The notes beneath the pieces were generated by a model, which was given only the letters and a program-made list of their open reading frames with translations, was not told the origin of the DNA and searched no databases. A program made the translations under genes and the position numbers. Of a stretch of 11,388 nt of DNA, positions 1 to 11,388 are shown piece after piece. The DNA is taken from NCBI GenBank assembly GCA_048938385.1, contig JBHLMG010000038.1, positions 1 to 11,388 of the forward strand, read 5' to 3'. Each line of letters begins with the position of its first letter. The first letter of the stretch is position 1. The stretch comes from Promethearchaeota archaeon. Lineage in GTDB: Archaea; Asgardarchaeota; Hermodarchaeia; Hermodarchaeales; Hermodarchaeaceae.

Positions 1-2442
1 GTAATGGGGGGGCAAGACAATTTGTCCTGCCACGCCCATTAAGGGTTCACAGATAAACGCTGCGACCCCCTTTCCTGTGCTTTTTAATTCATTTACTACT
101 GTCAAAATATCAGTGGCGTATTTTTTCCCTGCGTTATGATCCTTCGCTTTGTATTCACCCCGATAGACATCCGGGGTGCGGACTGTGTGGACAAACGCTG
201 GGGCCCCTCGCCCCCCAGGTCCATCGAACTTGTAGGGGCTGATGTCGATCATCGTGCCGGTGTTCCCGTGATAGGCCCCGTTGACTACAATGACATCGGA
301 CTGTCCGGTGTGGGTTCGAGCCATGCGGAGGGCGAGTTCGTTGGCCTCGCTCCCACTGTTGACGAAAAAGCACATTCGGAGAGGCTCCGGTAAGGTAGCA
401 ACCAGGCGCTTGGCGTAGTTAACCAAGGTTTCGTGTAGGTATCGGGTGTTCGTGTTCAAGACGGCGGCCTGGCGATGGAGGGCCTGTACCACCTTCGGGT
501 GGGAGTGGCCCACTTGTGGAACATTGTTGCGTCCGTCTAAATATCGGCGTCCGTCGGCATCGTAGAGGTATTGCATGTACCCCCGCACAATTTGGATGGG
601 TTGCTGATAGGAAAGGCTCAGGGCCTTCCCAATCAACTCACCTCGTGCTGTAAGGATTTCAGGTGTCTCCATGGGTTTGTGGGGGAATCGTTCTAACAGA
701 ATTCCTAGTATCGTGTTCGGATCAGGGCAGATACTCGTCCATGGTCGCCGTTGCCGGGGAAATGCAGCGATGGGAAAGTCACCTTTCCAGTCGAACATGT
801 CGGAGATCAACTGGAACCGAACCGATGGCGGCCAATCCCCGTTCGCTGGGGCGTCGCCGACCTGCCCAATTTGATCCCCTTTGTGGATGTGCTGACCGAC
901 TGTTCGTCCGTCAAGGGAGGTCCGACTCAGATGGGCGTAGAGGGTGTAGAATGTGAGGGCACCATCGTTGACGGTGTGCTCGAGGATAATCGTTGGACCG
1001 TTTCGGCGGAATCCTGGGTTCTCTTGTACGCTGTGAATGACACCGTCTAGCGGGGCGAGAACGGGGGAGCCGGAGGGCGCAAACAATTCCATGCCTAGAT
1101 GAATCGTGCGAGATTCAAAGCCCTCATGCAATGTTGACGGGATCTGCTCCTCTTGGTATACTAACCGTGCTTCGTTGTATCGACCCACTCCTACAGCTGT
1201 CCCATCAGCCTTGAGGCGATTCGCGATGAGTTGGGTAAAGGACGGGGTGTCATGGATGTCAACTAAGGCGCCGTATTCGAGGCTTCCGACGCTGAGGTCG
1301 AAGACAGTGACAGGTTCCGTGCGGATGTCGTAGTGTAGGAGGGTCCCAACCTGGTTTTGATTCTCCTGTAACCAGGTGATGATTTCCTGGCTCTTGGGGT
1401 TGGCAGGGAGTCCACAGGCATCTCGGAAGATGTAGGTAGCCAACCGCGGATGCACCGTTCGTAGTTGCTCTAGCATCTTCCAGGCGGGCTGTTCGGAGAT
1501 GGTGAGGTACTCGTTATCAGGTTCCAGCGTTTTCTGGTACGCTGAAATGGAGACGCTCAGCGCTAGACGCGTGCACACCAGATGAAACAGCAACTCGAGT
1601 TCCAACTCCGTAAGTGGAAACACGGAGTGATAGCCCCCCACCACCTGGGCTGCTGCGGTTATCGGGTCAGGTTTTCCCAGGATGGCGTAGGTGACAGCTA
1701 CCGCGATTTCGAAAACTGAATGGGACCACACCATGTCCCCAAAATCCAGAATCCCAAACTGTAAAGGCGTCGTTGGCTCGTGCCAGTTTACAATGATGTT
1801 GTAGTCATTACCATCGTTGTGAATCACACTGGAACGAAGGCGGGCAAGGTGAGGCTGCACCTGGGCCTCAAACACCGTGAGGAAATGCTTCACCAGCGCC
1901 CGTCGATCCTCGTCTGTGATGTGGCCAAGATACTGCCGGATGGTAACAGGTGCGTGCTTCAAATCCCAGTAGAGCTCTCGCTTCGCAGCAGGATGCGCAA
2001 AGTTGTCCAGGGCTCGGGATATTTGCCCGATGAATACTCCCAATTCTCGCAGGAAATACTCCGAGTGTGGCTTCACCTCCGCCATCACCTTCCCTGGTAG
2101 GTAGGAGACTAACCGCACAAAATGCGAATTGCCAGCAGCATCATCAAACACACCAATCTGCTCACCAGAGCGCGTCGGAATTAGATGTGGACTCAACATC
2201 CCTTCTGCAGTGTTCTGTAAATGCGTCATAGCTTGATTCTGAAACTCTAAGATTTCTCGTTTCTCTGATGTCGCCGCAATCTTGAGCACATACTCCTCAC
2301 CCGCACCCGTGCGTACATAGAAGTTCCGATCCCGCTCGCTCGGTAACTCATGAATCTCTCCCTCTACATCATACAATTCCTTGGCGATGCTGAAGGCTTG
2401 GTCTTCGGTGAACGGGGGACGCAATTGATCTCGACCTGACAC
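1..2442 (-). CDS. Fusion of an APH/hydroxylysine-kinase-like phosphotransferase, a degenerate M23-like domain and a class III PLP aminotransferase (AGXT2L/phospho-lyase-like); runs off the left edge
   Basis: Absent from the ORF track because it has no stop in the window. Hand translation from GTG at 2442 (GAGGTG 7 nt upstream) is open to base 1 (814 codons). Kinase motifs: LPSERDRNF, YVLKI, VIHNDGNDYNIIV, GILDFGD. M23-like segment: GRYNEAR..RTIHLGMELF..YTLYAHL..WPPSVRFQ. Aminotransferase-III motifs: IVRGYMQYLYD..YLD..NNVPQVGHSHP, LNTNTRYLH, FVNSGSEANELALR, AYHGNT, AAFICEP. Confidence 0.92.
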   Translation of the reverse strand, partial: MSGRDQLRPPFTEDQAFSIAKELYDVEGEIHELPSERDRNFYVRTGAGEEYVLKIAATSEKREILEFQNQAMTHLQNTAEGMLSPHLIPTRSGEQIGVFDDAAGNSHFVRLVSYLPGKVMAEVKPHSEYFLRELGVFIGQISRALDNFAHPAAKRELYWDLKHAPVTIRQYLGHITDEDRRALVKHFLTVFEAQVQPHLARLRSSVIHNDGNDYNIIVNWHEPTTPLQFGILDFGDMVWSHSVFEIAVAVTYAILGKPDPITAAAQVVGGYHSVFPLTELELELLFHLVCTRLALSVSISAYQKTLEPDNEYLTISEQPAWKMLEQLRTVHPRLATYIFRDACGLPANPKSQEIITWLQENQNQVGTLLHYDIRTEPVTVFDLSVGSLEYGALVDIHDTPSFTQLIANRLKADGTAVGVGRYNEARLVYQEEQIPSTLHEGFESRTIHLGMELFAPSGSPVLAPLDGVIHSVQENPGFRRNGPTIILEHTVNDGALTFYTLYAHLSRTSLDGRTVGQHIHKGDQIGQVGDAPANGDWPPSVRFQLISDMFDWKGDFPIAAFPRQRRPWTSICPDPNTILGILLERFPHKPMETPEILTARGELIGKALSLSYQQPIQIVRGYMQYLYDADGRRYLDGRNNVPQVGHSHPKVVQALHRQAAVLNTNTRYLHETLVNYAKRLVATLPEPLRMCFFVNSGSEANELALRMARTHTGQSDVIVVNGAYHGNTGTMIDISPYKFDGPGGRGAPAFVHTVRTPDVYRGEYKAKDHNAGKKYATDILTVVNELKSTGKGVAAFICEPLMGVAGQIVLPPHY

Positions 2443-2552
2443 TAGCTTACACCTCTGTATATCACAGCATATGTAATCCAAAAAATACTCTGCTGCAGAG
2501 AGGCTAAGACGAAAATCGAAAGAATCGAGCTAGAAAAAACCAACACTCAAAG

Positions 2553-2594
2553 AAACGCATGCGTCCACCTCAGTCTGGGCCATTACTATGCCCC
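2553..2594 (+). repeat. Intergenic direct repeat copy 1 (most degenerate)
   Basis: aaacgcatgcGTCCACctcagtctgggccattactatgcc; core GTCCAC at 2563-2568, with weak similarity to the extended consensus downstream. Confidence 0.5.
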
Positions 2595-2668
2595 GGAAAT
2601 AAGATACTGTTTCCTTACTAAGAGTTTAATAACTTGATTTCTAGGAGTGTCCGCAAGGTGGACCAAAA

Positions 2669-3247
2669 TTGTCGGAAATACCATCCCAAGATGGGCTGTT
2701 TATTGTTGACCAGCAAAAATGCGTGATCAAAGATTTTGATGCCCCAGGATGGATCCTTGATATCGGGGGCGGCGGTGAAGGGATCATTGGACGCCTTAAA
2801 GGATCCAACGTCATCGCCATCGACATTCGAAAAGAAGAACTCTTGGAAGCCCCACCAGGACCCTTAAAACTCGTTATGGATGCCACTGACCTCCACTTCC
2901 TCGATAACACCTTCGACACCGTTACCGCCTTCTTCTCCCTCATGTACTTGCCCTCCGAATCCCGCCCCCAAGTCTTCCACGAGGTAACCCGCGTCCTCGC
3001 ACCTGAAGGGAAATTTTACATCTGGGATGTCACGATTCCCCCGGTCACCGATCCCACGAAACATTTGTTCGTCGTCCCCCTCACCATCCAACTCCCCGAT
3101 GAGGAAGTCCAAACCGGCTACGGCGTCCCCTGGCAAGGGCGGAAACAATCCCTCAGCGATTATCTCCAACTCGCCCAAAAAACCGGACTCAAACTCGTCA
3201 CCCACCAAACCACCGACCACATCTTCTACATCGAATTCACAAAGTAA
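2669..3247 (+). CDS. Class I SAM-dependent methyltransferase (Methyltransf_11/25-like)
   Basis: Motif I ILDIGGGGEG, then VIAIDI, MDATDLHFLDNTFDTVT and RVLAPEGKFYIWD. TTG start preceded by AAGGTG. Confidence 0.9.
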   Translation: MSEIPSQDGLFIVDQQKCVIKDFDAPGWILDIGGGGEGIIGRLKGSNVIAIDIRKEELLEAPPGPLKLVMDATDLHFLDNTFDTVTAFFSLMYLPSESRPQVFHEVTRVLAPEGKFYIWDVTIPPVTDPTKHLFVVPLTIQLPDEEVQTGYGVPWQGRKQSLSDYLQLAQKTGLKLVTHQTTDHIFYIEFTK

Positions 3248-3269
3248 TCCATGACCAAATCACACTCCA

Positions 3270-3300
3270 ATAAACGAAAAAGGTGGTGTCCATCCCAACA
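3270..3300 (+). repeat. Intergenic direct repeat copy 2
   Basis: ATAAACGAAAAAggTGGT-GTCCAtCCcAAC. Shares the upstream ATAAACGAAAAA with the copy at 7058. Confidence 0.75.
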
Positions 3301-3502
3301 GTATAGGTCAACATCTCTCCTCCTTCTCCGACGCTCTTGAAAGGGAGATTTTGCCTTAGATGAACTTATGAAAGGGGCATTGGATTTTTCTCAAAAATTA
3401 GCTTTGCATGTGCGTACAGACCAATGCGTTCTTTTATTCGCTGACAAATGTCTACAGCACACATTCTAGCGCCGATTGCTCCTTTTCAGCGGGGTTAATG
3501 GT

Positions 3503-4312
3503 ATGAAAAAAGCGTATGCAGTAGGCTTACTTCTACTCGGATTACTCATTGCCTTCTCTCCTACACCGATCACGCGCGGGCTCCAACTCTCTTCATCTAC
3601 CAAACAGCTCCCCGTTTACATCGATCTGGTACCTAATTGGGATTTCGCCGAGATTGAATCGGGTGGGTGGGACGGAAACGACCATAATGCCAGCAAACCC
3701 ACCTTCTGGTACTTCACCGGTGATACCACTGGTCCCAAAGAACAATACCGAATAATCAACGATACCGCAAACGGTGGTGATGTCCACACCCTGTTCCTCC
3801 AACCTACCCACGCCAACCAAGAACACACCGTTATGTTCTGGCAAGACTTCACCACCCTCGACATTAACCAGGTCTCCATCCAGTACCGCAGTTGTGCCAC
3901 GGGTCCCACAGCCCTCATCCTGCTCTACGGGCTCAACGCTAGCATCACACCCGACACGCCCCTTCCCAACGGCACCATTCCCTACCTCACCACGCTTCAT
4001 CCCTCTCTCAACGAAACTCCTGGCTATTGGTCCAACTACACCACCGCCACCATCTCCCTATCCAACCTCCCCAACACCTACCACCACTACCGCATCCACT
4101 GGCAACTCATCGAAGCCCCCGGAAAACCCGACGCCCAACTATACATCACCTACTGCCGTGTTACCGGACCCCAACTCCTACTCCCTCTCATCTGGCCCCC
4201 AATCGCAATCCCAATCATAGGCCTTGTCGCCGGCATTATCGTTTCCATCATCATGCTCCTCGTCTACCTCAAAAAAACAGGGAAACTCCACTTACCCAAA
4301 CTAAGCCGATAA
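3503..4312 (+). CDS. Hypothetical secreted, membrane-anchored surface (glyco)protein
   Basis: ATG at 3503 (in frame with track ORF 3476) gives signal peptide MKKAYAVGLLLLGLLIAFS. C-terminal TM helix IAIPIIGLVAGIIVSIIMLLVYL followed by basic KKTGK. Several N-x-S/T sequons (NAS, NDT, NAS, NGT, NET, NYT). Confidence 0.8.
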   Translation: MKKAYAVGLLLLGLLIAFSPTPITRGLQLSSSTKQLPVYIDLVPNWDFAEIESGGWDGNDHNASKPTFWYFTGDTTGPKEQYRIINDTANGGDVHTLFLQPTHANQEHTVMFWQDFTTLDINQVSIQYRSCATGPTALILLYGLNASITPDTPLPNGTIPYLTTLHPSLNETPGYWSNYTTATISLSNLPNTYHHYRIHWQLIEAPGKPDAQLYITYCRVTGPQLLLPLIWPPIAIPIIGLVAGIIVSIIMLLVYLKKTGKLHLPKLSR

Positions 4313-4324
4313 CACGACCACATT

Positions 4325-4364
4325 GAGGGCGTCCACCCTAACCTGGCAATTCACCTGCCAAGAA
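4325..4364 (+). repeat. Intergenic direct repeat copy 3 (long form)
   Basis: gagggcGTCCACCCTAACCTGGCAATTCACCTGCCAAGAA. Aligns over ~35 bp with the copies at 8713 and 10706. Confidence 0.85.
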
Positions 4365-4381
4365 CATCACATGTCCAATTA

Positions 4382-5590
4382 CTAATGGTCTAAAGAAGTC
4401 CTGCGGCGATAGACAACGATTACCAAGACAACACAGGCAATTATGATGGCTGTACCACCCGCAATCACAGGTCCATAAGTCAGCAGCATCGAACCCCAAT
4501 CCGTTAATGTCAAGGGGTGTTGGGCAAGCACCCAGTTCATCAAGAAAAGAGCGGCCGCCCAGTTTTCCTCGCAGGTGGGTAAGATTTCCACTTCAGGTAA
4601 CTCAAAGTAGGTCAAATCGAACTCTGGATTGTTTGGACGAAGTTCGATCGTGAGACCCGGAATCCCTTTTTCCTCATAAACCCAATCTCCCATATCACCC
4701 ACCGTCAGGTATGTTGCACCGCCCTGTACGACGGTATACTCTTCCCCATGGACCGCATGAATCGCTTCGGCCATTCCCTGCGACAACGCCTCCATGCTAG
4801 CGGCATCAACGGGGGGGTCGGGTGTGTAGCCCCAAGGGTAGGCAATCATTTGCCAGTAGCTATGATAACTGACCACCGCCTGGAAGTCATTCTCCACATC
4901 CAAAATCAAATCGCGCATTGCCACCGTTTCTGGCTCTGAAAACGCCGAGGGGCCCCAATAGGTCTCATCAATGGGATTGGGCGACCCATCCGCAATCCCC
5001 TCCTCAACATCTTGCCCCCAATTAGATGTCCCATAGTTTCGGTTCAGATCTACACCGAATGTCCCATCACTATTATTCACGCGATTCTTTCGCCAATACC
5101 GTGAATTCTCCCCCGGACTCTCGGGGGACTCAAAATACGCCCGACAGAATTCAAGACCATCAGGGTTCACGACGGGCACAATCCAAATCTCGCAATTATC
5201 AACAAACCTTTTGACGACAGGGTCAGAGTCATACAACTCCACCAGCTTCCACGCAAAGTAGTAGGGGACTTCTGCTGAAATCCACTCCCGAGCATGATGC
5301 AGCCCCACAAAGAGAACATCCGGCTCATGCCGCTCCTTGATATTCGGATAATCACTGATCTTAATCGCCCAGATGGGGCGTCCCTCCACGCTATACCCCA
5401 CAGCATCCAGCCACACTATCGGTGAACTACTCAATGCTAGAAGCCCTGCCACAAACTCTGAATATGTATGGTATTCCGTCCACTGAACCGGAACCAAGGA
5501 CACGTTAGCCCAAACCCTTGGCGGCCTTACCAAGACGCACAACGCCATCACTAACACAGCAACTACACAACTACTCTTCAACCGCCTCAA
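4382..5590 (-). CDS. M14 zinc carboxypeptidase (carboxypeptidase T-like), secreted and C-terminally anchored
   Basis: HHAREW (HxxE Zn ligands), VNPDG, WRKNR, GVDLNRNY, FSEPET, SYHSY (third Zn ligand) and TIELRP (catalytic Glu). N-terminal signal; C-terminal TM followed by RRR. Confidence 0.93.
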   Translation of the reverse strand: MRRLKSSCVVAVLVMALCVLVRPPRVWANVSLVPVQWTEYHTYSEFVAGLLALSSSPIVWLDAVGYSVEGRPIWAIKISDYPNIKERHEPDVLFVGLHHAREWISAEVPYYFAWKLVELYDSDPVVKRFVDNCEIWIVPVVNPDGLEFCRAYFESPESPGENSRYWRKNRVNNSDGTFGVDLNRNYGTSNWGQDVEEGIADGSPNPIDETYWGPSAFSEPETVAMRDLILDVENDFQAVVSYHSYWQMIAYPWGYTPDPPVDAASMEALSQGMAEAIHAVHGEEYTVVQGGATYLTVGDMGDWVYEEKGIPGLTIELRPNNPEFDLTYFELPEVEILPTCEENWAAALFLMNWVLAQHPLTLTDWGSMLLTYGPVIAGGTAIIIACVVLVIVVYRRRTSLDH

Positions 5591-5683
5591 AACAACACTT
5601 CCAATAAAATATCAACGCAGAAGCGCACTTCTAGTTAAACGCAATAGCCCTTCTGAACGATAAAAAATACCCGATACAGGACC

Positions 5684-5713
5684 AAACAAGCGGTCGTCCA
5701 CTCCAGCTCACGG
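5684..5713 (+). repeat. Intergenic direct repeat copy 4
   Basis: aaacAAGcGGTCGTCCACtCcagctCACGG; core at 5696-5701. Confidence 0.75.
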
Positions 5714-5895
5714 AACACATACTGAAGTTGCACGTATATTCTGGCTTGTTAATCGCCATTTTCTTGCGTTTCGAAAGCGTATTTGCACTTTCCACCAAAT
5801 ACCTGAAAGGGACGGGTCAATTCATCCAATTCGGTATGTAGAAATATCATGGACCACAAAGGCTTACCAATGGTTTCATCGTGGGAGGTGATTCA

Positions 5896-6111
5896 ATGGC
5901 AAGAGTATATCGCATTCTCCTGCAAATCCTCGCAGTTTTGAACCTAGTGGTGGTTAGCCTGAATTTAGTGCTTCCCCTCGTCGGCCTTCCTGTAAATGGA
6001 ACGCCAACCCCCGCCCAAGCAATCCTAATCTACATCTATTTCGGAACCTTCACCTGGCCGATATTAACTGGGCTCATTCTTCTCCTTAATGTCTTCAAAC
6101 CTAGTGACTGA
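5896..6111 (+). CDS. Small two-TM hypothetical membrane protein (71 aa)
   Basis: Strong RBS GGAGGTGAT just upstream of ATG 5896. Two hydrophobic stretches: ILLQILAVLNLVVVSLNLVLPLVGL and AILIYIYFGTFTWPILTGLILLL. Confidence 0.72.
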   Translation: MARVYRILLQILAVLNLVVVSLNLVLPLVGLPVNGTPTPAQAILIYIYFGTFTWPILTGLILLLNVFKPSD

Positions 6112-6196
6112 ACGACTGGACTCCCCGGTGAAGGCACTCCTTGACAATCACTCATCGAAAAACGAGAACAGACAAAACCCATTACAGAGCCTACAG

Positions 6197-6234
6197 AAGT
6201 GCTAGTCCACACCAGCAGCTCGTAAAGCACCTGC
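6197..6234 (+). repeat. Intergenic direct repeat copy 5
   Basis: AAGTGcTaGTCCACaCcagcagctcgtaaagCACCTGC; core at 6205-6210. Distal CACCTGC is shared with copy 3. Confidence 0.62.
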
Positions 6235-6288
6235 AGTTCAGGCATGCAATCCTAGGCTTTAATTGAAAGCTGGTAATTTTTACGAGTT

Positions 6289-6918
6289 CTACATCTTTTC
6301 CAGTTCCCCAGTGGGTGGATACAGCGCGAGTTTTCTCTCAATCTCATAGATTAAAGGAATGATTCCTTTGAGATCCCCAATGGCCTTAAGACAGCCTTTG
6401 GCAAAAACCTCGTCTTCAAACTGGTCATAGAGTGAACTAAAATAGGATCCGGAGTATTCCGCGTCTTTGAAATTACTGAAAAGACCTCTTGATGTGGTGA
6501 GCCCCAAATAGGTTTTATTTAGCAGCATCATTAAGGAGACCGACATACCACTAACAAAGTCGAGATTCCCGTATTCATCGACGGGACCATCTTTGCCTTC
6601 CAGAAACGCGGCTAGCGCCTTCTTCCGCTCCTTTTTCCATTTCGTAGGATCTTTCTCCCACTCATACAGCGTAAAGTAGGCAGGAAGCCCCAACATCATT
6701 TCTTCCGCCAAGGCTTCTGGCAGCTGCCTTTGCAGTTGACAGACCCCAGGATAAATGTCCCGCATCAAGGCTCCAAACTTCTCCACCCCTTCTTGCCGAT
6801 CTGGATACTCCGCCTCCAAAAACGCCTTTATCTTCGGCACATAATCTCTGGCAAAAAACGCCACCAAATACGAAACTTTGTCCGGCTTCACTCGTTTCCC
6901 CTGCAAAAACTGGACCAA
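6289..6918 (-). CDS. Hypothetical soluble protein (209 aa)
   Basis: Open frame with TTG start 5 nt after GGAGGTG. Plausible helical composition; no motif recognised. Confidence 0.75.
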   Translation of the reverse strand: MVQFLQGKRVKPDKVSYLVAFFARDYVPKIKAFLEAEYPDRQEGVEKFGALMRDIYPGVCQLQRQLPEALAEEMMLGLPAYFTLYEWEKDPTKWKKERKKALAAFLEGKDGPVDEYGNLDFVSGMSVSLMMLLNKTYLGLTTSRGLFSNFKDAEYSGSYFSSLYDQFEDEVFAKGCLKAIGDLKGIIPLIYEIERKLALYPPTGELEKM

Positions 6919-7057
6919 ACGAACACCTCCATCTGCGATTAATCGAGCACCACTCCGTACTCACTTAAATTACTAATGGCTTAGCACATTTGATTTGGAT
7001 CATCATAGTCAGGAACCACCAAGATGCAACAACTCCTCGTAGCGAACACTGACACAA

Positions 7058-7101
7058 ATAAACGAAAAATGGTCGTCCACCCAAGCAGTCTAACCAATTC
7101 A
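7058..7101 (+). repeat. Intergenic direct repeat copy 6
   Basis: ATAAACGAAAAATGGTCGTCCACCCaagcagtctaacCAATTCA; core at 7075-7080. Confidence 0.85.
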
Positions 7102-7151
7102 TAGAAGCTTAGACCTGCTCAAATGTCGGGTTTACAAATTTTCACTTCAGC

Positions 7152-7164
7152 TTATATACTCCGT
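7152..7164 (+). promoter_or_regulatory. Putative archaeal TATA box plus shared flank (TTATATACTCCGT) upstream of the beta-helix gene
   Basis: TTATATA box. The same 13-mer occurs on the minus strand at 10877-10889. Confidence 0.5.
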
Positions 7165-7232
7165 CTCATTTGTAAACACCTCTCTTCACACCCAAATAAA
7201 TCCCTCTTCCAGCTACCCGAAATCGCATTATC

Positions 7233-8639
7233 GTGACCAAGAAGGTAGCGATAACTCGAGGGATATATGCATTGAAAATTCATAACTCAAGCAGGTATGT
7301 GGTCATAACCGGGTTGTTCTTGGTATTGGCCATCTCACTGTTTACGAGCAGTCTCACAATCGCTGCACCATTCGAACAACGCATCACTCCGTCAAATGAC
7401 ATCACTGGTACCACCGACTGGCAAAACCTGCAAACCGCCTTCAACGCGGCTTCAGGAATTCCTGGTGCGGTAATCGAACTCCAAGCCGGAACATACTACA
7501 TTAATCAGGCTGTTGTAATCAAAGATTTCGTCGGCACATTCAAAGGCGCGGGTATGGAACAGACGATAGTTCAGACGCCGGGTGGAGATTATCTGTTTCC
7601 CAAAGTGACTGAAGGTCCGGTCTGGGAAGCCCCCGGCATGTTCATCTTCTACTACGACCAATTAGGCGAAGCGCACACACCAGCGCATCTTACCCTCTCC
7701 GACATGACTTGGCACGCTATCGGTCAAACTGAAGGTTGGGTAACTCATGTGCCTTTCCTCGTTGACCAATTTGCCTACATAAGCGCTGTATATGGGCGGT
7801 ATACCGGAATTGAAGACGATGAAGTGTCATACATCAGCACAACTGCGGAACGAATGCAATTTCTGGGTGACTCGTATCCAGAAGGCAAACTTGGACCCGT
7901 GAATGTCATCAATGGATTCATCATGGAACCCGAATTCTTTGCTACCGACGATGATCCACCAGAATTCTATACTGACAAACAGCTCTGTGGAACCTACACT
8001 TGCATCAGTTCGAAATTCCAAAACATCCTCTATGCCTACAACACCCTAATGATCACTGACTCCAGTGTCACAGTTGGTGGAAAACCCCAATTCCAAAACA
8101 CCTTCATTGACTGTGCTACAGGAGTTGACCTCTTTAACTTAGACAACTCCGAAGCAGAAGTGTCATACTCTGAAACCTTTAATTCCAGCGCGGTTATCAT
8201 CGAACTGTATGCACCTGGCCTGACCCCATCAACTTTCACCATCAAACACAACACCATTCGACAACGCCCATCAGCATGGTTTGCGGGCGTAGAAGTCTGG
8301 AGCTATGGCCTCTATTATGGACAAGAAAACATCGATACTCTCAACATCACACAGAACACCATCATCTCGGAAAGCCACAATCCACCCTATGGTCCCATCT
8401 TTTGTTTCGGTGCCCATAACACCAACATTACCAACAACATGATTCAAGGAACTGGAGAATCCGGAATCTTCCTTGGTGGACTATCAACTGGCTGCTACAT
8501 CCGTGGAAACAACCTCAAACACTACGACGCAACAGCCCAAGACATCTACCTGGGATCCGCTACCAGCCATTGCACCGTCATCCTCGGGGCAACCGACACA
8601 ATCACAGACGATGGAACAAACAACACCATCCAAGGCTAA
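7233..8639 (+). CDS. Secreted right-handed parallel beta-helix (pectin-lyase-fold/NosD-like) protein
   Basis: N-terminal hydrophobic segment; cap motif DWQNLQTAFNAA..VIELQAGTYYIN..FKGAGMEQTIV; repeated TIKHNTI, NITQNTI, NITNNMI and YIRGNNL rungs. The true start may be TTG at 7272. Confidence 0.8.
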   Translation: MTKKVAITRGIYALKIHNSSRYVVITGLFLVLAISLFTSSLTIAAPFEQRITPSNDITGTTDWQNLQTAFNAASGIPGAVIELQAGTYYINQAVVIKDFVGTFKGAGMEQTIVQTPGGDYLFPKVTEGPVWEAPGMFIFYYDQLGEAHTPAHLTLSDMTWHAIGQTEGWVTHVPFLVDQFAYISAVYGRYTGIEDDEVSYISTTAERMQFLGDSYPEGKLGPVNVINGFIMEPEFFATDDDPPEFYTDKQLCGTYTCISSKFQNILYAYNTLMITDSSVTVGGKPQFQNTFIDCATGVDLFNLDNSEAEVSYSETFNSSAVIIELYAPGLTPSTFTIKHNTIRQRPSAWFAGVEVWSYGLYYGQENIDTLNITQNTIISESHNPPYGPIFCFGAHNTNITNNMIQGTGESGIFLGGLSTGCYIRGNNLKHYDATAQDIYLGSATSHCTVILGATDTITDDGTNNTIQG

Positions 8640-8712
8640 ACCCACTCATTGGTGCTTCCAGAGAGAAGCACCCCCGCACCCTTTTTACTCCTGAAACTCA
8701 AGCACTATATAC

Positions 8713-8756
8713 CGAAAAAGTGGTCGTCCACCCTAACACGGCAATTCACCGTGTTA
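8713..8756 (+). repeat. Intergenic direct repeat copy 7 (intact core, with a perfect 8-bp inverted repeat)
   Basis: CGAAAAAGTGGTCGTCCACCC-TAACACGG-caattca-CCGTGTTA; core GTCCAC at 8726-8731, hairpin at 8734-8756. Confidence 0.9.
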
Positions 8757-8858
8757 ATTGATCGATGACAGCTCCCGGTTTTAGTACCGTTGTATTCCTC
8801 ATATGAGCTGTACTGTCTTCTGTCCCGTTCTTATAGAGACGCTGGACAAAATGGAGTT

Positions 8859-10664
8859 TTACGATGTGCAAATCTGGAGGCAGTGTTGTGGACAACGATG
8901 GACGCAAGCATTACAATTGATACACCTTTGGGAGTGGGCTGGGTTAGCTTTGTGTCTCGCAGTATCTAACTGGAAGATATTCATCGGACAGACTTGTACA
9001 CAGACTCCACATCCATTACACTGTTCGGCATCCTGAGCAATTTGTCCATAGGGTTGAAGGGGATACCTCCCCGTAAAGAATGGCATTTGTGAATGCCCTC
9101 GCTTGTACAGCAACTGACCCAAATCGCTGGGTAAGATTGGCGTCATTCCATTCAAGTCCACACCCAAGATTATCACTACACTAATCGTGACTAGCAGTTC
9201 CCACAGCAACCCCAACAAGCTCCCCGTTGTATAAAGCGCAACGAGTAGGACTCCGCTGATGGCGCAAATCCCATATACCAGCGTTTTGACGAAACCTGAT
9301 CTGCTGGGGAGGTAGGGTATAAGAAGATAAGCACCATAAGTGAGCAGCCAAATGATTCCCAGGGTTAGGAGAAGCCTCGTGGGCGCAAAAATCAGGCTGA
9401 GCGGGACCGCACAGAGCGAAATCATAATAGCATAGAGGCTTGCCATTTCTAAGCGCCGCGACACCGGAAACCGTACGGTTCGCATGCACTCGGTTTTCTT
9501 CGCTTCGTTCTTCAAATAGGCTGGGATGTCCGCGGCATACACGGGACCAAACTGGGCTGTCCATCCCGTCTCCTGCTTAATCACATCGGGATCAACGCCT
9601 GGTGCCGCAAGTTGCGGAAGAATCAGACCCCGGTGTCGTACCAAATTATTGATACCACTCAGCTTTATCGCCGCGATAACAGAGTGTGCCGTAAAATCAC
9701 CCCCACACGCTGCACACCACACATTGATGCCCCGCGTTGGAGCCACCAACACATAACAATCAATCTTCGCTTGTTGGAGAGTTTTCAGAACCCGGCGAAT
9801 GGTCAGATCGTAATTGCATGTGACTAGCACGGGGCTTTGAGGCGAGGGCTGACCCACAGGGAGAAGTCCGGGCGAAGTAGCAACTGCCACCCAGCGAAAA
9901 ATCGTTTCCGCCACATACTTGAGTCGTGATCCCACCTGGACTGTCGGATACGAAGACTGTGATTCTGGGGGTAGTTGCTCTTGGTGGGGTTTCGTTACAA
10001 TCAGTAATAACAACGAGTCTAGTAGATATCGCTTCTGAACCAGGAACTGAAACCCGAACTTTCTGAGCTTTTCTTCAAGATTTTTCACGCGATGGGTGGT
10101 GGTCTGACTCAGGATAAAAGTGAACACCGTAAGAGGTACGCGTAAAACATAATAGGGAAGCATTTTTCGTATCGAACGGGGACGGACTTCATCCACGATG
10201 ATCAGGCGTCCATCCGGGCGAAGCAGACGCCTTGCTTCACGAAGCAGGTAGGCCTGTTCCACATCAGACAATTCGCTCAACACTAAGGTGGCAGTCACCA
10301 CATCAAAGGAGGCATCAGGAAACTGATCCGTCTCCGTCAAATCCATCTCCCGAAACTGCACCCTATCATCCAACTTCTCCTGCACTGCTTTGGCTTGAGC
10401 TAACGCAATCATAGCAGGTGACACATCAATTCCAATCACCTGCGCCCCTTTCCGCGCACAAAGCCGCGCCAATGTACCAGTCCCACTTCCAATATCAAGA
10501 ACATGGTCAGATGACCCAACGATTTTATCAGCTATCCACTGTTTAAGAATTGCATCAACACCCAATGTGAGAACCTTAAGGCCCTGATCATACCGCCACG
10601 GCGCTGACTCCAGCAACTTCATGAGCACAGCAGTTGACGCAACTAACGCCTCCTGGTCATCCAC
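8859..10664 (-). CDS. Fusion of a class I SAM methyltransferase, an HgcA/CdhD-like corrinoid-binding domain, TM helices and a 2x[4Fe-4S] HgcB-like ferredoxin (HgcAB-like fusion)
   Basis: MTase: VLDIGSGTGT, GIDVSPAMI, FDVVTATLVLSEL, LLRPDGRLIIVDE. HgcA-like: SPVLVTCNYDLT, TRGINVWCAACGG (cap helix), LILPQLAAPGV, FGPVYAADIPAYL, MRTVRFP. About 4 TM helices. Ferredoxin: CNGCGVCVQVCP and CINCNACVHRCP. Start codon uncertain. Confidence 0.9.
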   Translation of the reverse strand: MDDQEALVASTAVLMKLLESAPWRYDQGLKVLTLGVDAILKQWIADKIVGSSDHVLDIGSGTGTLARLCARKGAQVIGIDVSPAMIALAQAKAVQEKLDDRVQFREMDLTETDQFPDASFDVVTATLVLSELSDVEQAYLLREARRLLRPDGRLIIVDEVRPRSIRKMLPYYVLRVPLTVFTFILSQTTTHRVKNLEEKLRKFGFQFLVQKRYLLDSLLLLIVTKPHQEQLPPESQSSYPTVQVGSRLKYVAETIFRWVAVATSPGLLPVGQPSPQSPVLVTCNYDLTIRRVLKTLQQAKIDCYVLVAPTRGINVWCAACGGDFTAHSVIAAIKLSGINNLVRHRGLILPQLAAPGVDPDVIKQETGWTAQFGPVYAADIPAYLKNEAKKTECMRTVRFPVSRRLEMASLYAIMISLCAVPLSLIFAPTRLLLTLGIIWLLTYGAYLLIPYLPSRSGFVKTLVYGICAISGVLLVALYTTGSLLGLLWELLVTISVVIILGVDLNGMTPILPSDLGQLLYKRGHSQMPFFTGRYPLQPYGQIAQDAEQCNGCGVCVQVCPMNIFQLDTARHKANPAHSQRCINCNACVHRCPQHCLQICTS

Positions 10665-10699
10665 TCCAACATTAGGCTTCCTAATAGAAAAAAGCTAGC

Positions 10700-10860
10700 A
10701 AAAGCAAAGTGGTCGTCCACCCCACCACGGTAATTAACCTGCCAGGAATAATGCACCCGGACTCCTTACCGCACATACCGTCCAAAGCGACCCCGAAGGG
10801 CCGCTTCAGAAGCAATGAATTCCTAGGAGGTGATCCTGTAGTCGTGGGTTTGTTTAGAAG
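10700..10860 (-). ncRNA. Candidate structured non-coding RNA or long 5' leader (unknown family)
   Basis: On the minus strand: TTATATA box at 10889-10883; GGATCACCTCCT at 10836-10825; 9-bp stem AAGCGGCCC-TTCG-GGGTCGCTT at 10806-10785, whose C(UUCG)G loop and G-U pair only work on this strand; possible further stems (GGAC..GTCC or CCGGG..CCTGG); terminal hairpin GGGTGG-ACGA-CCACTT followed by T-rich sequence. Boundaries are estimates. Confidence 0.5.
10706..10748 (+). repeat. Intergenic direct repeat copy 8 (intact core; 3' end of the candidate minus-strand RNA)
   Basis: AAAGTGGTCGTCCACCCcACCACGGtAATTaACCTGCCAGGAA; core GTCCAC at 10715-10720. Confidence 0.9.
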
Positions 10861-10876
10861 AGTTAAGTCACAAGTC

Positions 10877-10889
10877 ACGGAGTATATAA
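10877..10889. promoter_or_regulatory. TATA element, possibly bidirectional (LLM gene on +, candidate RNA and HgcAB-like gene on -)
   Basis: ACGGAGTATATAA reads TATATAA on + (about 45 nt before ATG 10932) and TTATATAC on -. Confidence 0.5.
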
Positions 10890-10931
10890 CCGCATACCTC
10901 TAATCAATCAACGACGATGGAAGGTGATAAG

Positions 10932-11388
10932 ATGCCTCTCAGCTTCGGAATTCAAATTGGGAATTACTTCGGTTTTGATTATGATACGATAAAGGAAATC
11001 GCACTGACGGCAGAAAAAATTGGCTATGACGCGTTGTGGATTAGCGACCACTTCTTCATTGATAAGAACCCCGCAACGACATCGTGTCTAGAAGCGTGGA
11101 CTGTTCTCTCCGCCTTGGCATCCATCACCAAGACACTTCGGTTGGGCACCTTGGTGACCTGTAACGGATTTCGATATCCCACGGTCTTGGCTAAAATCGC
11201 TGCAACCGTTGATGTGATTTCGAATGGTCGATTGGAGTTTGGCATTGGTGCGGGCTGGAAAAAGAATGAACACGTTAACTACGGGATTCCTTTCCCAAGT
11301 CTCAAAGAGCGAATGGATCGATTGGAAGAATCCGTACAGATAATCAAGAAGCTGTGGACTGAGCCAAGTGTCAGTTTTGATGGAGTAT
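10932..11388 (+). CDS. LLM-class (probably F420-dependent) oxidoreductase; runs off the right edge
   Basis: Absent from the ORF track because it has no stop in the window. ATG 10932 follows AAGGTGAT and translates as MPLSFGIQIG..AEKIGYDALWISDHF..LEAWTVLSALASITKTLRLGTLVTCNGFRYPTVLAKIAATVDVISNGRLEFGIGAGW..ERMDRLEESVQIIKKLWTE. Confidence 0.93.
   Translation, partial: MPLSFGIQIGNYFGFDYDTIKEIALTAEKIGYDALWISDHFFIDKNPATTSCLEAWTVLSALASITKTLRLGTLVTCNGFRYPTVLAKIAATVDVISNGRLEFGIGAGWKKNEHVNYGIPFPSLKERMDRLEESVQIIKKLWTEPSVSFDGV

Follow-up and report, generated by a model that had tools for sequence, protein, structure and literature searches.

A single-chain CpaM-HgcAB-like protein in a Promethearchaeota archaeon, a rare fused state of a catalogued family

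The mercury methylase consists of the corrinoid protein HgcA and the ferredoxin HgcB, and a clade of fused HgcAB proteins related to it was described by Podar et al. (PMC4646819), who obtained no methylmercury from a cultured carrier and pointed out that such negatives do not prove the enzyme inactive. The fused clade, including members from Thor- and Lokiarchaeota, was also described by Lin et al. (10.1101/2022.11.21.517362), and Villar et al. (10.1101/648329) mentioned in passing that a "ubiE" methyltransferase lies beside HgcA-like genes of Nitrospina. We analyzed an 11,388-nt stretch of DNA from a Promethearchaeota archaeon (contig JBHLMG010000038.1 of assembly GCA_048938385.1, positions 1 to 11,388), referred to here as the window, and within it a minus-strand gene that encodes, in one chain, a class I S-adenosylmethionine (SAM) methyltransferase of the CpaM type followed by an HgcAB-like protein. 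Elsewhere the two halves are generally encoded by a pair of genes, cpaM and hgcAB-like (NCBIfam NF043040 and NF043039), and we equated this module with what Podar 2015, Gilmour 2018, and Lin 2023 called "fused HgcAB"; the P. furiosus protein presumably belongs to NF043039. The gene had first been described from the letters of the DNA alone (the sequence-only reading); the observation made there was confirmed and its interpretation was partly supported. As judged from its sequence, the protein is a rare fused state within an already catalogued family, with a predicted biochemistry.

Modules and continuity of the reading frame

The genome that contains the window comprises 51 contigs totaling 2.48 Mb, with a completeness of 89.8%, and a profile search found only one copy in it of each of the two matched families. 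The gene and its parts are as follows.

8859..10664, minus strand: whole open reading frame including the stop codon, single-chain CpaM-HgcAB-like protein, 601 amino acids (aa) read from GTG, with the frame kept in five other species of the genus
10620..10622, minus strand: alternative and probably true start, ATG (Met15), giving 587 aa; the close homologues P0003 and P0005-P0008 start MKLLE or MRLLE here
9993..10631, minus strand: CpaM-type class I SAM methyltransferase domain, residues 12-224 (NF043040), with motif I G59-x-G61-x-G63, D80, D121, S130-E131, and E159
9921..9992, minus strand: linker rich in Pro, Gln, and Ser, residues 225-248 (24 residues), in the place of the stop-start junction of the unfused gene pair
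8874..9920, minus strand: HgcAB-like part, residues 249-597 (NF043039)
9516..9884, minus strand: corrinoid-binding domain, residues 261-383 (Pfam CdhD, E 6.8e-19), homologous to the C-terminal B12 domain of the large subunit of the corrinoid iron-sulfur protein (CFeSP)
9699..9731, minus strand: cap helix GINVWCAACGG, residues 312-322, with Cys317 (codon 9714-9716) as the presumed cobalt ligand
9156..9464, minus strand: four transmembrane helices, residues 401-503 (AlphaFold2 helices 401-426, 428-451, 457-480, and 487-503)
8868..9038, minus strand: HgcB-like 2x[4Fe-4S] ferredoxin domain, residues 543-599 (Pfam Fer4 families, match 543-595)

The sequence-only reading had seen four modules in one 601-aa frame without giving its strand, and all four were recovered with Pfam, NCBIfam, and AlphaFold2, in the order class I SAM methyltransferase, HgcA-like corrinoid domain, four membrane helices, and 2x[4Fe-4S] ferredoxin from the N to the C terminus. 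The AlphaFold2 model, built from an alignment of 89 rows, was confident throughout (mean predicted local distance difference test score [pLDDT], 94.6; predicted template modeling score [pTM], 0.92). Since the closest homologues start at the equivalent of Met15 (ATG 10622-10620), the product is 587 to 601 aa long; one homologue starts eight residues further upstream than that position. The nearest named homologues come from metagenome-assembled genomes of Promethearchaeota and "Ranarchaeia."

The N-terminal domain matched the NCBIfam model NF043040, "corrinoid protein-associated methyltransferase CpaM," which is of the type "hypoth_equivalog," scoring 256.4 bits where the cut-off is 180 (model positions 2-215 of 216 aligned to residues 12-224), and the same model gave 259.6 bits at 9993..10631 in the search of the genome. 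This is the family that the sequence-only reading had named, correctly, as corrinoid-protein-associated methyltransferases usually encoded by separate genes. Pfam Methyltransf_11 matched residues 56-156 (E 3.8e-25). The SAM motifs were intact: G59, G61, D80 (the ribose-binding acidic residue), and E159 were 100% conserved and G63 was 98% conserved among 62 sequences. When the whole model was compared with the PDB by Foldseek, only class I methyltransferases were retrieved for the N-terminal domain, and nothing was retrieved for the corrinoid and membrane parts. The arsenite methyltransferase ArsM requires a triad of As(III)-binding cysteines; the methyltransferase domain here has a single cysteine, C69, which looks unconserved by eye in the alignment. 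An identity as ArsM (NF008823 and relatives) was not supported, the score being 55.5 bits against a cut-off of 263, and from the sequence an ArsM-like role for the CpaM domain is unlikely.

The remainder of the chain matched NF043039, "HgcAB-like fusion protein," over its full length (model positions 2-350 of 350) with 378.9 bits against a cut-off of 285, or 380.7 bits in the search of the genome, and it has the architecture of that family, in which an HgcA-like corrinoid domain, transmembrane helices, and a 2x[4Fe-4S] ferredoxin share one chain. Among the sequences of solved structures, the corrinoid-binding domain matched PDB 2h9a_A (E 7.6e-12, residues 261-386 against 318-441), and no HgcA structure was matched. 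In the cap helix, G312, W316, and C317 were 100% conserved, N314 was 99% conserved, and G322 was 91% conserved across 76 sequences, and Cys317 is the presumed cobalt ligand. Cys320 completes a CxxC motif with Cys317 (WCAAC; 9705-9716, minus strand) that is specific to certain lineages: position 320 is a cysteine in 29% of the 76 relatives, and the motif was seen in several lineages, though not in all, in fused and unfused forms alike. Lying one helical turn away from the presumed cobalt ligand, this additional thiol may bear on the chemistry of the CxxC subgroup. The transmembrane helices were modeled with a pLDDT of 95 to 98; R404 and G506 in this region are nearly invariant, and G457 and K460 are conserved at 77% and 80%, respectively. 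Because the number of helices in the model is even, the ferredoxin, the corrinoid domain, and the methyltransferase would all face one side of the membrane. The ferredoxin carries two complete cluster motifs, C549xxC552xxC555xxxC559P and C581xxC584xxC587xxxC591P, in which six of the eight cysteines were conserved at 98 to 100%, C552 at 84%, and C559 at 88%. Its tail, RCPQHCLQICTS, contains the additional residues Cys595 and Cys599, which are not vicinal; the former is a cysteine in 27% of the relatives and the latter is unconserved.

A stop codon or frameshift in the linker (around 9930-9990) would have reduced the protein to two adjacent gene products, as the sequence-only reading had itself pointed out, and neither was seen. 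The frame was open in the window, and in homologues of 71 to 87% identity the linker was open, in frame, and of the same length, while its sequence drifted across the alignment; in the structural model it had a pLDDT of 83 to 90. Intact fused frames of 597 to 601 aa were present in genomes of five further species of the genus (597 to 611 aa over its six genomes), and six public protein clusters of 71 to 87% identity, from different contigs and sources, had the same triple architecture; in all, public triple fusions span 36 to 87% identity to the window protein. In the nearest unfused relatives, both genes lie in the same frame with one stop between them (TAA-ATG in locus L040, TAG in L043), so that fusion would have taken the loss of a stop and the gain of a spacer rich in Pro, Gln, and Ser. 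This arrangement also means that a single erroneous base in the assembly or the reads would suffice to merge two such genes. We nevertheless consider an artefact of this kind extremely improbable, since the fused frame recurs in the five species-level genomes and the six clusters and since the linker is at least 18 residues longer than a stop-start junction and stays in frame. The single-chain fusion is genuine and joins two proteins that normally come from adjacent, translationally coupled genes.

Distribution of the module and recurrence of the fusion

The loci of relatives were scanned with hidden Markov models of the methyltransferase (M), the HgcA-like protein (A), and the ferredoxin (B), built from our own alignment, A1. 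Among Asgard archaea, an HgcAB-like gene scored above the cut-off in 58 of the 301 genomes sampled, and at the unfused loci a CpaM-type open reading frame was located immediately upstream on the same strand, often overlapping, in 25 of 26 cases. These upstream frames scored 218 to 307 bits, compared to about 31 for an unrelated methyltransferase. A second Asgard family has fused frames of 645 to 672 aa. In species-representative genomes, relatives were encoded at at least 575 places, and the best 80 of these were surveyed; they were drawn from Odin-, Thor-, Heimdall-, and Hadarchaeota, Bathyarchaeota, Hydrothermarchaeota, Chloroflexota, Myxococcota, Desulfobacteraceae, Aminicenantes, and others. 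By layout, about 50 of the 80 were [M][AB] with the two genes directly adjacent, 23 were [MA] fusions (followed directly in 21 cases by a small ferredoxin frame), and 3 were full [MAB] fusions. CpaM adjoined or was fused to the HgcA-like protein in 77 of the 80 loci, with the methyltransferase located 1 to 2 kb upstream in L085 and L121 and no methyltransferase in the stretch scanned around L094. No fourth gene was conserved across the 80 loci; M, A, and B alone always travel together. An ABC-transporter ATPase gene was found nearby in 9 of them.

The module to which the window protein belongs has the same order of parts (M, A, B), both halves above their family cut-offs, a cap helix of the type G(I/V)NVWC(A/S/G)(A/S)xGG, four transmembrane helices, and two cluster motifs; the window protein differs in having the 24-residue linker instead of a stop-start junction, which makes it one chain. 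Full-length triple fusions accounted for about 6 to 8 of the 229 family clusters (at 50% identity) that matched with E <= 1e-30 among 1.84 billion representative proteins. On a maximum-likelihood tree computed for 115 HgcA-like domains, the [MAB] state has to change 9 times, and well-supported branches make 7 of these changes unavoidable; the tree came from a "quick" search, some of its [AB] rows from databases may stem from truncated gene calls, and it does not distinguish gains from losses. These changes suggest separate fusions in the clade of the window, in the second Asgard clade, in a clade made up mostly of bacteria, and in at least two further clades, and the sequences thus indicate that the triple fusion is rare but recurrent and arose several times.

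The fusion had been put forward as Rosetta-stone evidence linking this methyltransferase family to HgcAB-like proteins. It does link CpaM to them, but the link is not new, as it is already stated by gene adjacency and by the curated family name. As for whether the architecture would turn out to be common and already characterized, it is common in that it recurs in several lineages, and the NCBI pipeline (PGAP) names three triple fusions "HgcAB-like fusion protein," but it is uncharacterized.

A lower-scoring second type of HgcA-like locus in four other Asgard genomes (L136-L139, from G119, G178, G133, and G238) had [MTase-HgcA-like] and [ferredoxin] in one frame with a single TGA between them ("...MGW*" or "...LLF*"). 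A selenocysteine at this in-frame TGA was rejected, as the codon sits at the [MA]/[B] boundary and at no cysteine position. From the sequence it is most simply an ordinary stop between two genes.

Relation to the mercury methylase and to CFeSP

True HgcA and HgcB share several properties with the window protein: a homologous corrinoid domain with a cysteine on the cap helix, a homologous transmembrane region with P-x-R-x-G-x-x-K and (D/N)-x-x-G-x-T-P blocks, a dicluster ferredoxin partner, and SAM as the likely source of the methyl group. C317 is the equivalent of the cap-helix Cys93 of strain ND132, and the two CxxCxxCxxxCP motifs are those expected of HgcB. The protein nevertheless failed both models of the true enzyme, scoring 170 bits against a cut-off of 275 with HgcA model NF040863 (170.9 in the genome search) and 38.8 bits against 99 with HgcB model NF040864, in agreement with the sequence-only reading, which had called it HgcA-like; it is not a canonical HgcA. 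No other candidate for a true HgcA or HgcB was found by profile search elsewhere in this 89.8% complete genome. The HgcA cap motif N(V/I)WC(A/S)(A/G/S)GK was not matched; the window protein has NVWCAACG, with GG in the place where true HgcA has GK after the cap-helix cysteine. The Hg-MATE protocol accepts only cap motifs that end in GK (10.1101/2022.03.14.484253). The vicinal cysteine pair of HgcB (Cys94/Cys95 of ND132), which is required for mercury methylation (PMC11588087), is missing from the tail of the ferredoxin domain. The window protein has four transmembrane helices and then the fused ferredoxin, whereas true HgcA has five transmembrane helices (PMC11588087), and a fifth hydrophobic segment was present in a true HgcA that we read for comparison. 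Finally, the window protein has a dedicated class I methyltransferase, which is dispensable for true HgcAB in vitro (PMC11588087).

The true proteins used for this comparison came from two Desulfobacteraceae genomes, G301 and G302 (L128 and L129), in which a true hgcA (467.9 and 420.4 bits; cap motifs NVWCAAGK and NVWCAASK) is followed by an hgcB-like ferredoxin frame while a triple fusion lies on another contig. The HgcB of L128 has CCC and a terminal CC in its cysteine-rich tail, and the L129 locus has an ArsR-like helix-turn-helix gene upstream. The coexistence of a true HgcA and a triple fusion in both genomes is as expected of paralogues with different jobs.

It could still be argued that the window protein works as a mercury methylase and is true HgcAB with its parts fused, since it has an HgcA-like fold, a cysteine-bearing cap helix, a transmembrane domain, and a dicluster ferredoxin, and since the negative cultures do not, by the account of their authors, prove inactivity (PMC4646819). 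We regard this as very unlikely, given the failure of both models, a cap motif outside those accepted, the lack of the Cys-Cys tail needed in HgcB, and the retention of a true HgcA beside the triple fusion in the two Desulfobacteraceae genomes. Moreover, the two tested cultured carriers of fused hgcAB, P. furiosus and M. methylutens, produced no methylmercury (PMC4646819, PMC5893877), in line with the sequence-only reading. The acceptor is therefore probably something other than Hg(II).

The other close relative of the corrinoid domain is the CFeSP large subunit AcsC/CdhE, which has a homologous B12-binding domain (Pfam CdhD; PDB 2h9a, 4c1n, and 4djd, E 1e-10 to 1e-12). The window protein differs in scoring 93.5 bits with NF003195 against a cut-off of 306, in matching only its C-terminal domain (residues 261-390 against 322-449, the last 128 model positions), in having no match to the TIM barrel or the N-terminal cluster domain, and in being membrane anchored. 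A separate CdhE-like gene is present on contig 2 of the genome.

Possible course of methyl transfer and surroundings of the gene

In keeping with the sequence-only reading, we propose, with a probability of roughly 0.6, that the CpaM and HgcAB-like parts form a machine that would carry a methyl group from SAM to a Co(I)-corrinoid and from there to an acceptor, with reactivation by the built-in ferredoxin. The ferredoxin domain would take up low-potential electrons and reduce the protein-bound corrinoid to Co(I). The CpaM domain would then bind SAM and present its methyl group to Co(I), producing CH3-Co(III) under the Cys317 cap helix together with S-adenosylhomocysteine, and the methyl group would finally pass to the acceptor at the membrane face. 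What we infer in this scheme is the direction in which the methyl group moves, the role of cobalt as the CpaM substrate, and every feature of the acceptor. Transfer from SAM to cobalt is established chemistry in the sister family, since purified true HgcAB moves a methyl group from SAM onto Co(I) (PMC11588087), which confirms in print the statement of the sequence-only reading that SAM is a reported methyl donor for HgcAB. In addition, the genome contains six genes with B12-binding domains, which suggests that corrinoids are in use in this organism.

Several points weigh against the proposed scheme. The gene neighborhood within the window gave no hint of an acceptor, and a literature search found no paper that names CpaM or treats the partnership or fusion of a methyltransferase with HgcAB-like proteins. 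We know of no class I Rossmann methyltransferase that methylates the cobalt of a corrinoid. True HgcAB reacts with SAM without a separate methyltransferase in vitro (PMC11588087), so that cobalt loading does not clearly call for an additional methyltransferase, which may have another function. It is for these reasons, the independence of HgcAB from an extra methyltransferase in vitro and the lack of a known class I precedent for cobalt, that our confidence was held near the value given above.

In a rival explanation, the methyltransferase might serve together with the ferredoxin solely in repair, by reductive remethylation of inactive Co(II), with another molecule as the catalytic methyl donor. 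Methionine synthase (MetH) carries out reductive methylation with a SAM-binding (AdoMet) domain and flavodoxin, and what that reaction requires would be covered exactly by a ferredoxin plus a SAM-binding module. The two systems would be alike in principle, each producing CH3-Co(III) on a corrinoid domain to which a module that binds SAM and a carrier of low-potential electrons are attached, but they are not homologous: the AdoMet domain of MetH has its own fold, compared to the class I Rossmann methyltransferase here, and the carrier here would be a ferredoxin in the place of flavodoxin. An inactive Co(II) state, which has to be reduced at low potential, is also part of HgcAB chemistry (PMC11588087). 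However, no conserved gene for a transferase of the MT1 type, serving a separate methyl donor, was found beside the module in the 80 loci, and the sister enzyme uses SAM as its stoichiometric donor (PMC11588087). We thus think it improbable that the module works only in repair.

About as improbable, in our judgment, is that the methyltransferase acts on the final substrate itself (a membrane lipid, a quinone, or another small molecule) rather than on cobalt, leaving a second, harder step on the same substrate to the corrinoid and ferredoxin part. Outside CpaM, the best matches of the methyltransferase domain were indeed quinone and lipid methylases (UbiE/MenG, 79.7 bits; MpqE, 71.9 bits; and, by Foldseek of the whole model against the PDB, Coq5 and phosphatidylethanolamine [PE] N-methyltransferase with template modeling scores of 0.73 and 0.74, respectively), but all of the family matches were below the family cut-offs, and matches of this kind are typical of any class I methyltransferase. 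A membrane methyltransferase of the PEMT/ICMT family is encoded directly beside cpaM/hgcAB-like in four distant lineages (L084:2419-2970, L052:2136-2723, L019:3393-3902, and L117:2390-2998, from Desulfurococcales, Hadarchaeota, an Asgard genome, and a bacterium), yet these are only 4 of about 109 loci. A gene for a TetR-family regulator, located directly upstream on the same strand in 13 of the 80 loci (e.g., L061:2381-3013; mostly Chloroflexota with [MA][B]), also fits a substrate of this kind, while the residues conserved only in CpaM (S130-E131 and E159), which have no known meaning, speak against it.

Returning to transfer by way of cobalt, a wider proposal, which we advance tentatively and with rather less confidence than the scheme itself, is that CpaM would be a class I Rossmann methyltransferase acting on protein-bound corrinoid Co(I), that the machine would methylate a membrane acceptor other than mercury (a lipid, a quinone, or a metalloid), and that SAM-to-cobalt transfer would be ancestral to the HgcA superfamily, with true HgcA being a derived form that has lost its dedicated SAM module. 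Methylation of a corrinoid Co(I) is not, to our knowledge, a reaction known from this fold.

Within the window the gene stands alone, converging on a gene for a beta-helix protein and diverging from one for a luciferase-like oxidoreductase. The other neighbors are unrelated to it: an M14 peptidase, a small methyltransferase, and a fusion of APH, M23, and aminotransferase domains. The last of these, on the minus strand at 1-2481 and running off the contig end, is a frame of at least 827 aa with phosphotransferase (APH), peptidase M23, and class-III aminotransferase domains; kinase-aminotransferase fusions of this kind presumably resemble kinase/phospho-lyase pairs. An intergenic repeat flanks the gene on both sides, and its copies in the window are as follows.

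8717..8750, plus strand: copy of the intergenic repeat (core GGTCGTCCACC), 109 nt beyond the stop of the CpaM-HgcAB-like gene
10706..10739, plus strand: second copy, lying 42 nt upstream of the GTG in the spacer from which this gene and the luciferase-like gene diverge
4322-4355, 5681-5701, and 7066-7099, plus strand: further copies in the window, with the same core

The repeat, about 34 to 75 nt long, occurs once per spacer of the contig and always on the plus strand, regardless of the strand of the genes. Its 14-mer was found only seven times in the genome, on three short contigs: that of the window, C42 (L140: 1522, 2451, and 5612), and C39 (L141: 3129). On C42 and C39 there are genes for two B12-binding radical SAM proteins, a further radical SAM protein, a class I methyltransferase, and a PEMT/ICMT-like methyltransferase, and it is this PEMT-like gene of the window's own genome (L141:3287-3943) that comes after a repeat copy. 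The closest sister species (L042) showed the same bracketing, which was absent from L044 and L045. When seven copies or strands were folded as single strands, they had no hairpin in common (z -0.06 to -2.9), and by this test the repeat is not integron-like (attC-like). It may act as a shared regulatory site, or it may mark the boundary of a cassette.

For the window itself, the main result is a correct annotation: the gene should not be counted as a mercury methylase. More broadly, the HgcAB-like clade is routinely dropped from surveys of mercury methylation as a confusing paralogue, yet it is present in a fifth of the sampled Asgard genomes and in many bacterial and archaeal phyla. The true enzyme's methyl group has been known to come from SAM since 2024, and the paralogue always occurs with, or fused to, a SAM-binding methyltransferase. 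This constant partner would make the HgcAB-like family a natural system for learning how SAM reaches the corrinoid and which targets other than mercury are methylated, and the single-chain form, with its fixed 1:1:1 stoichiometry and no need for coexpression, would be the most convenient construct with which to do so.

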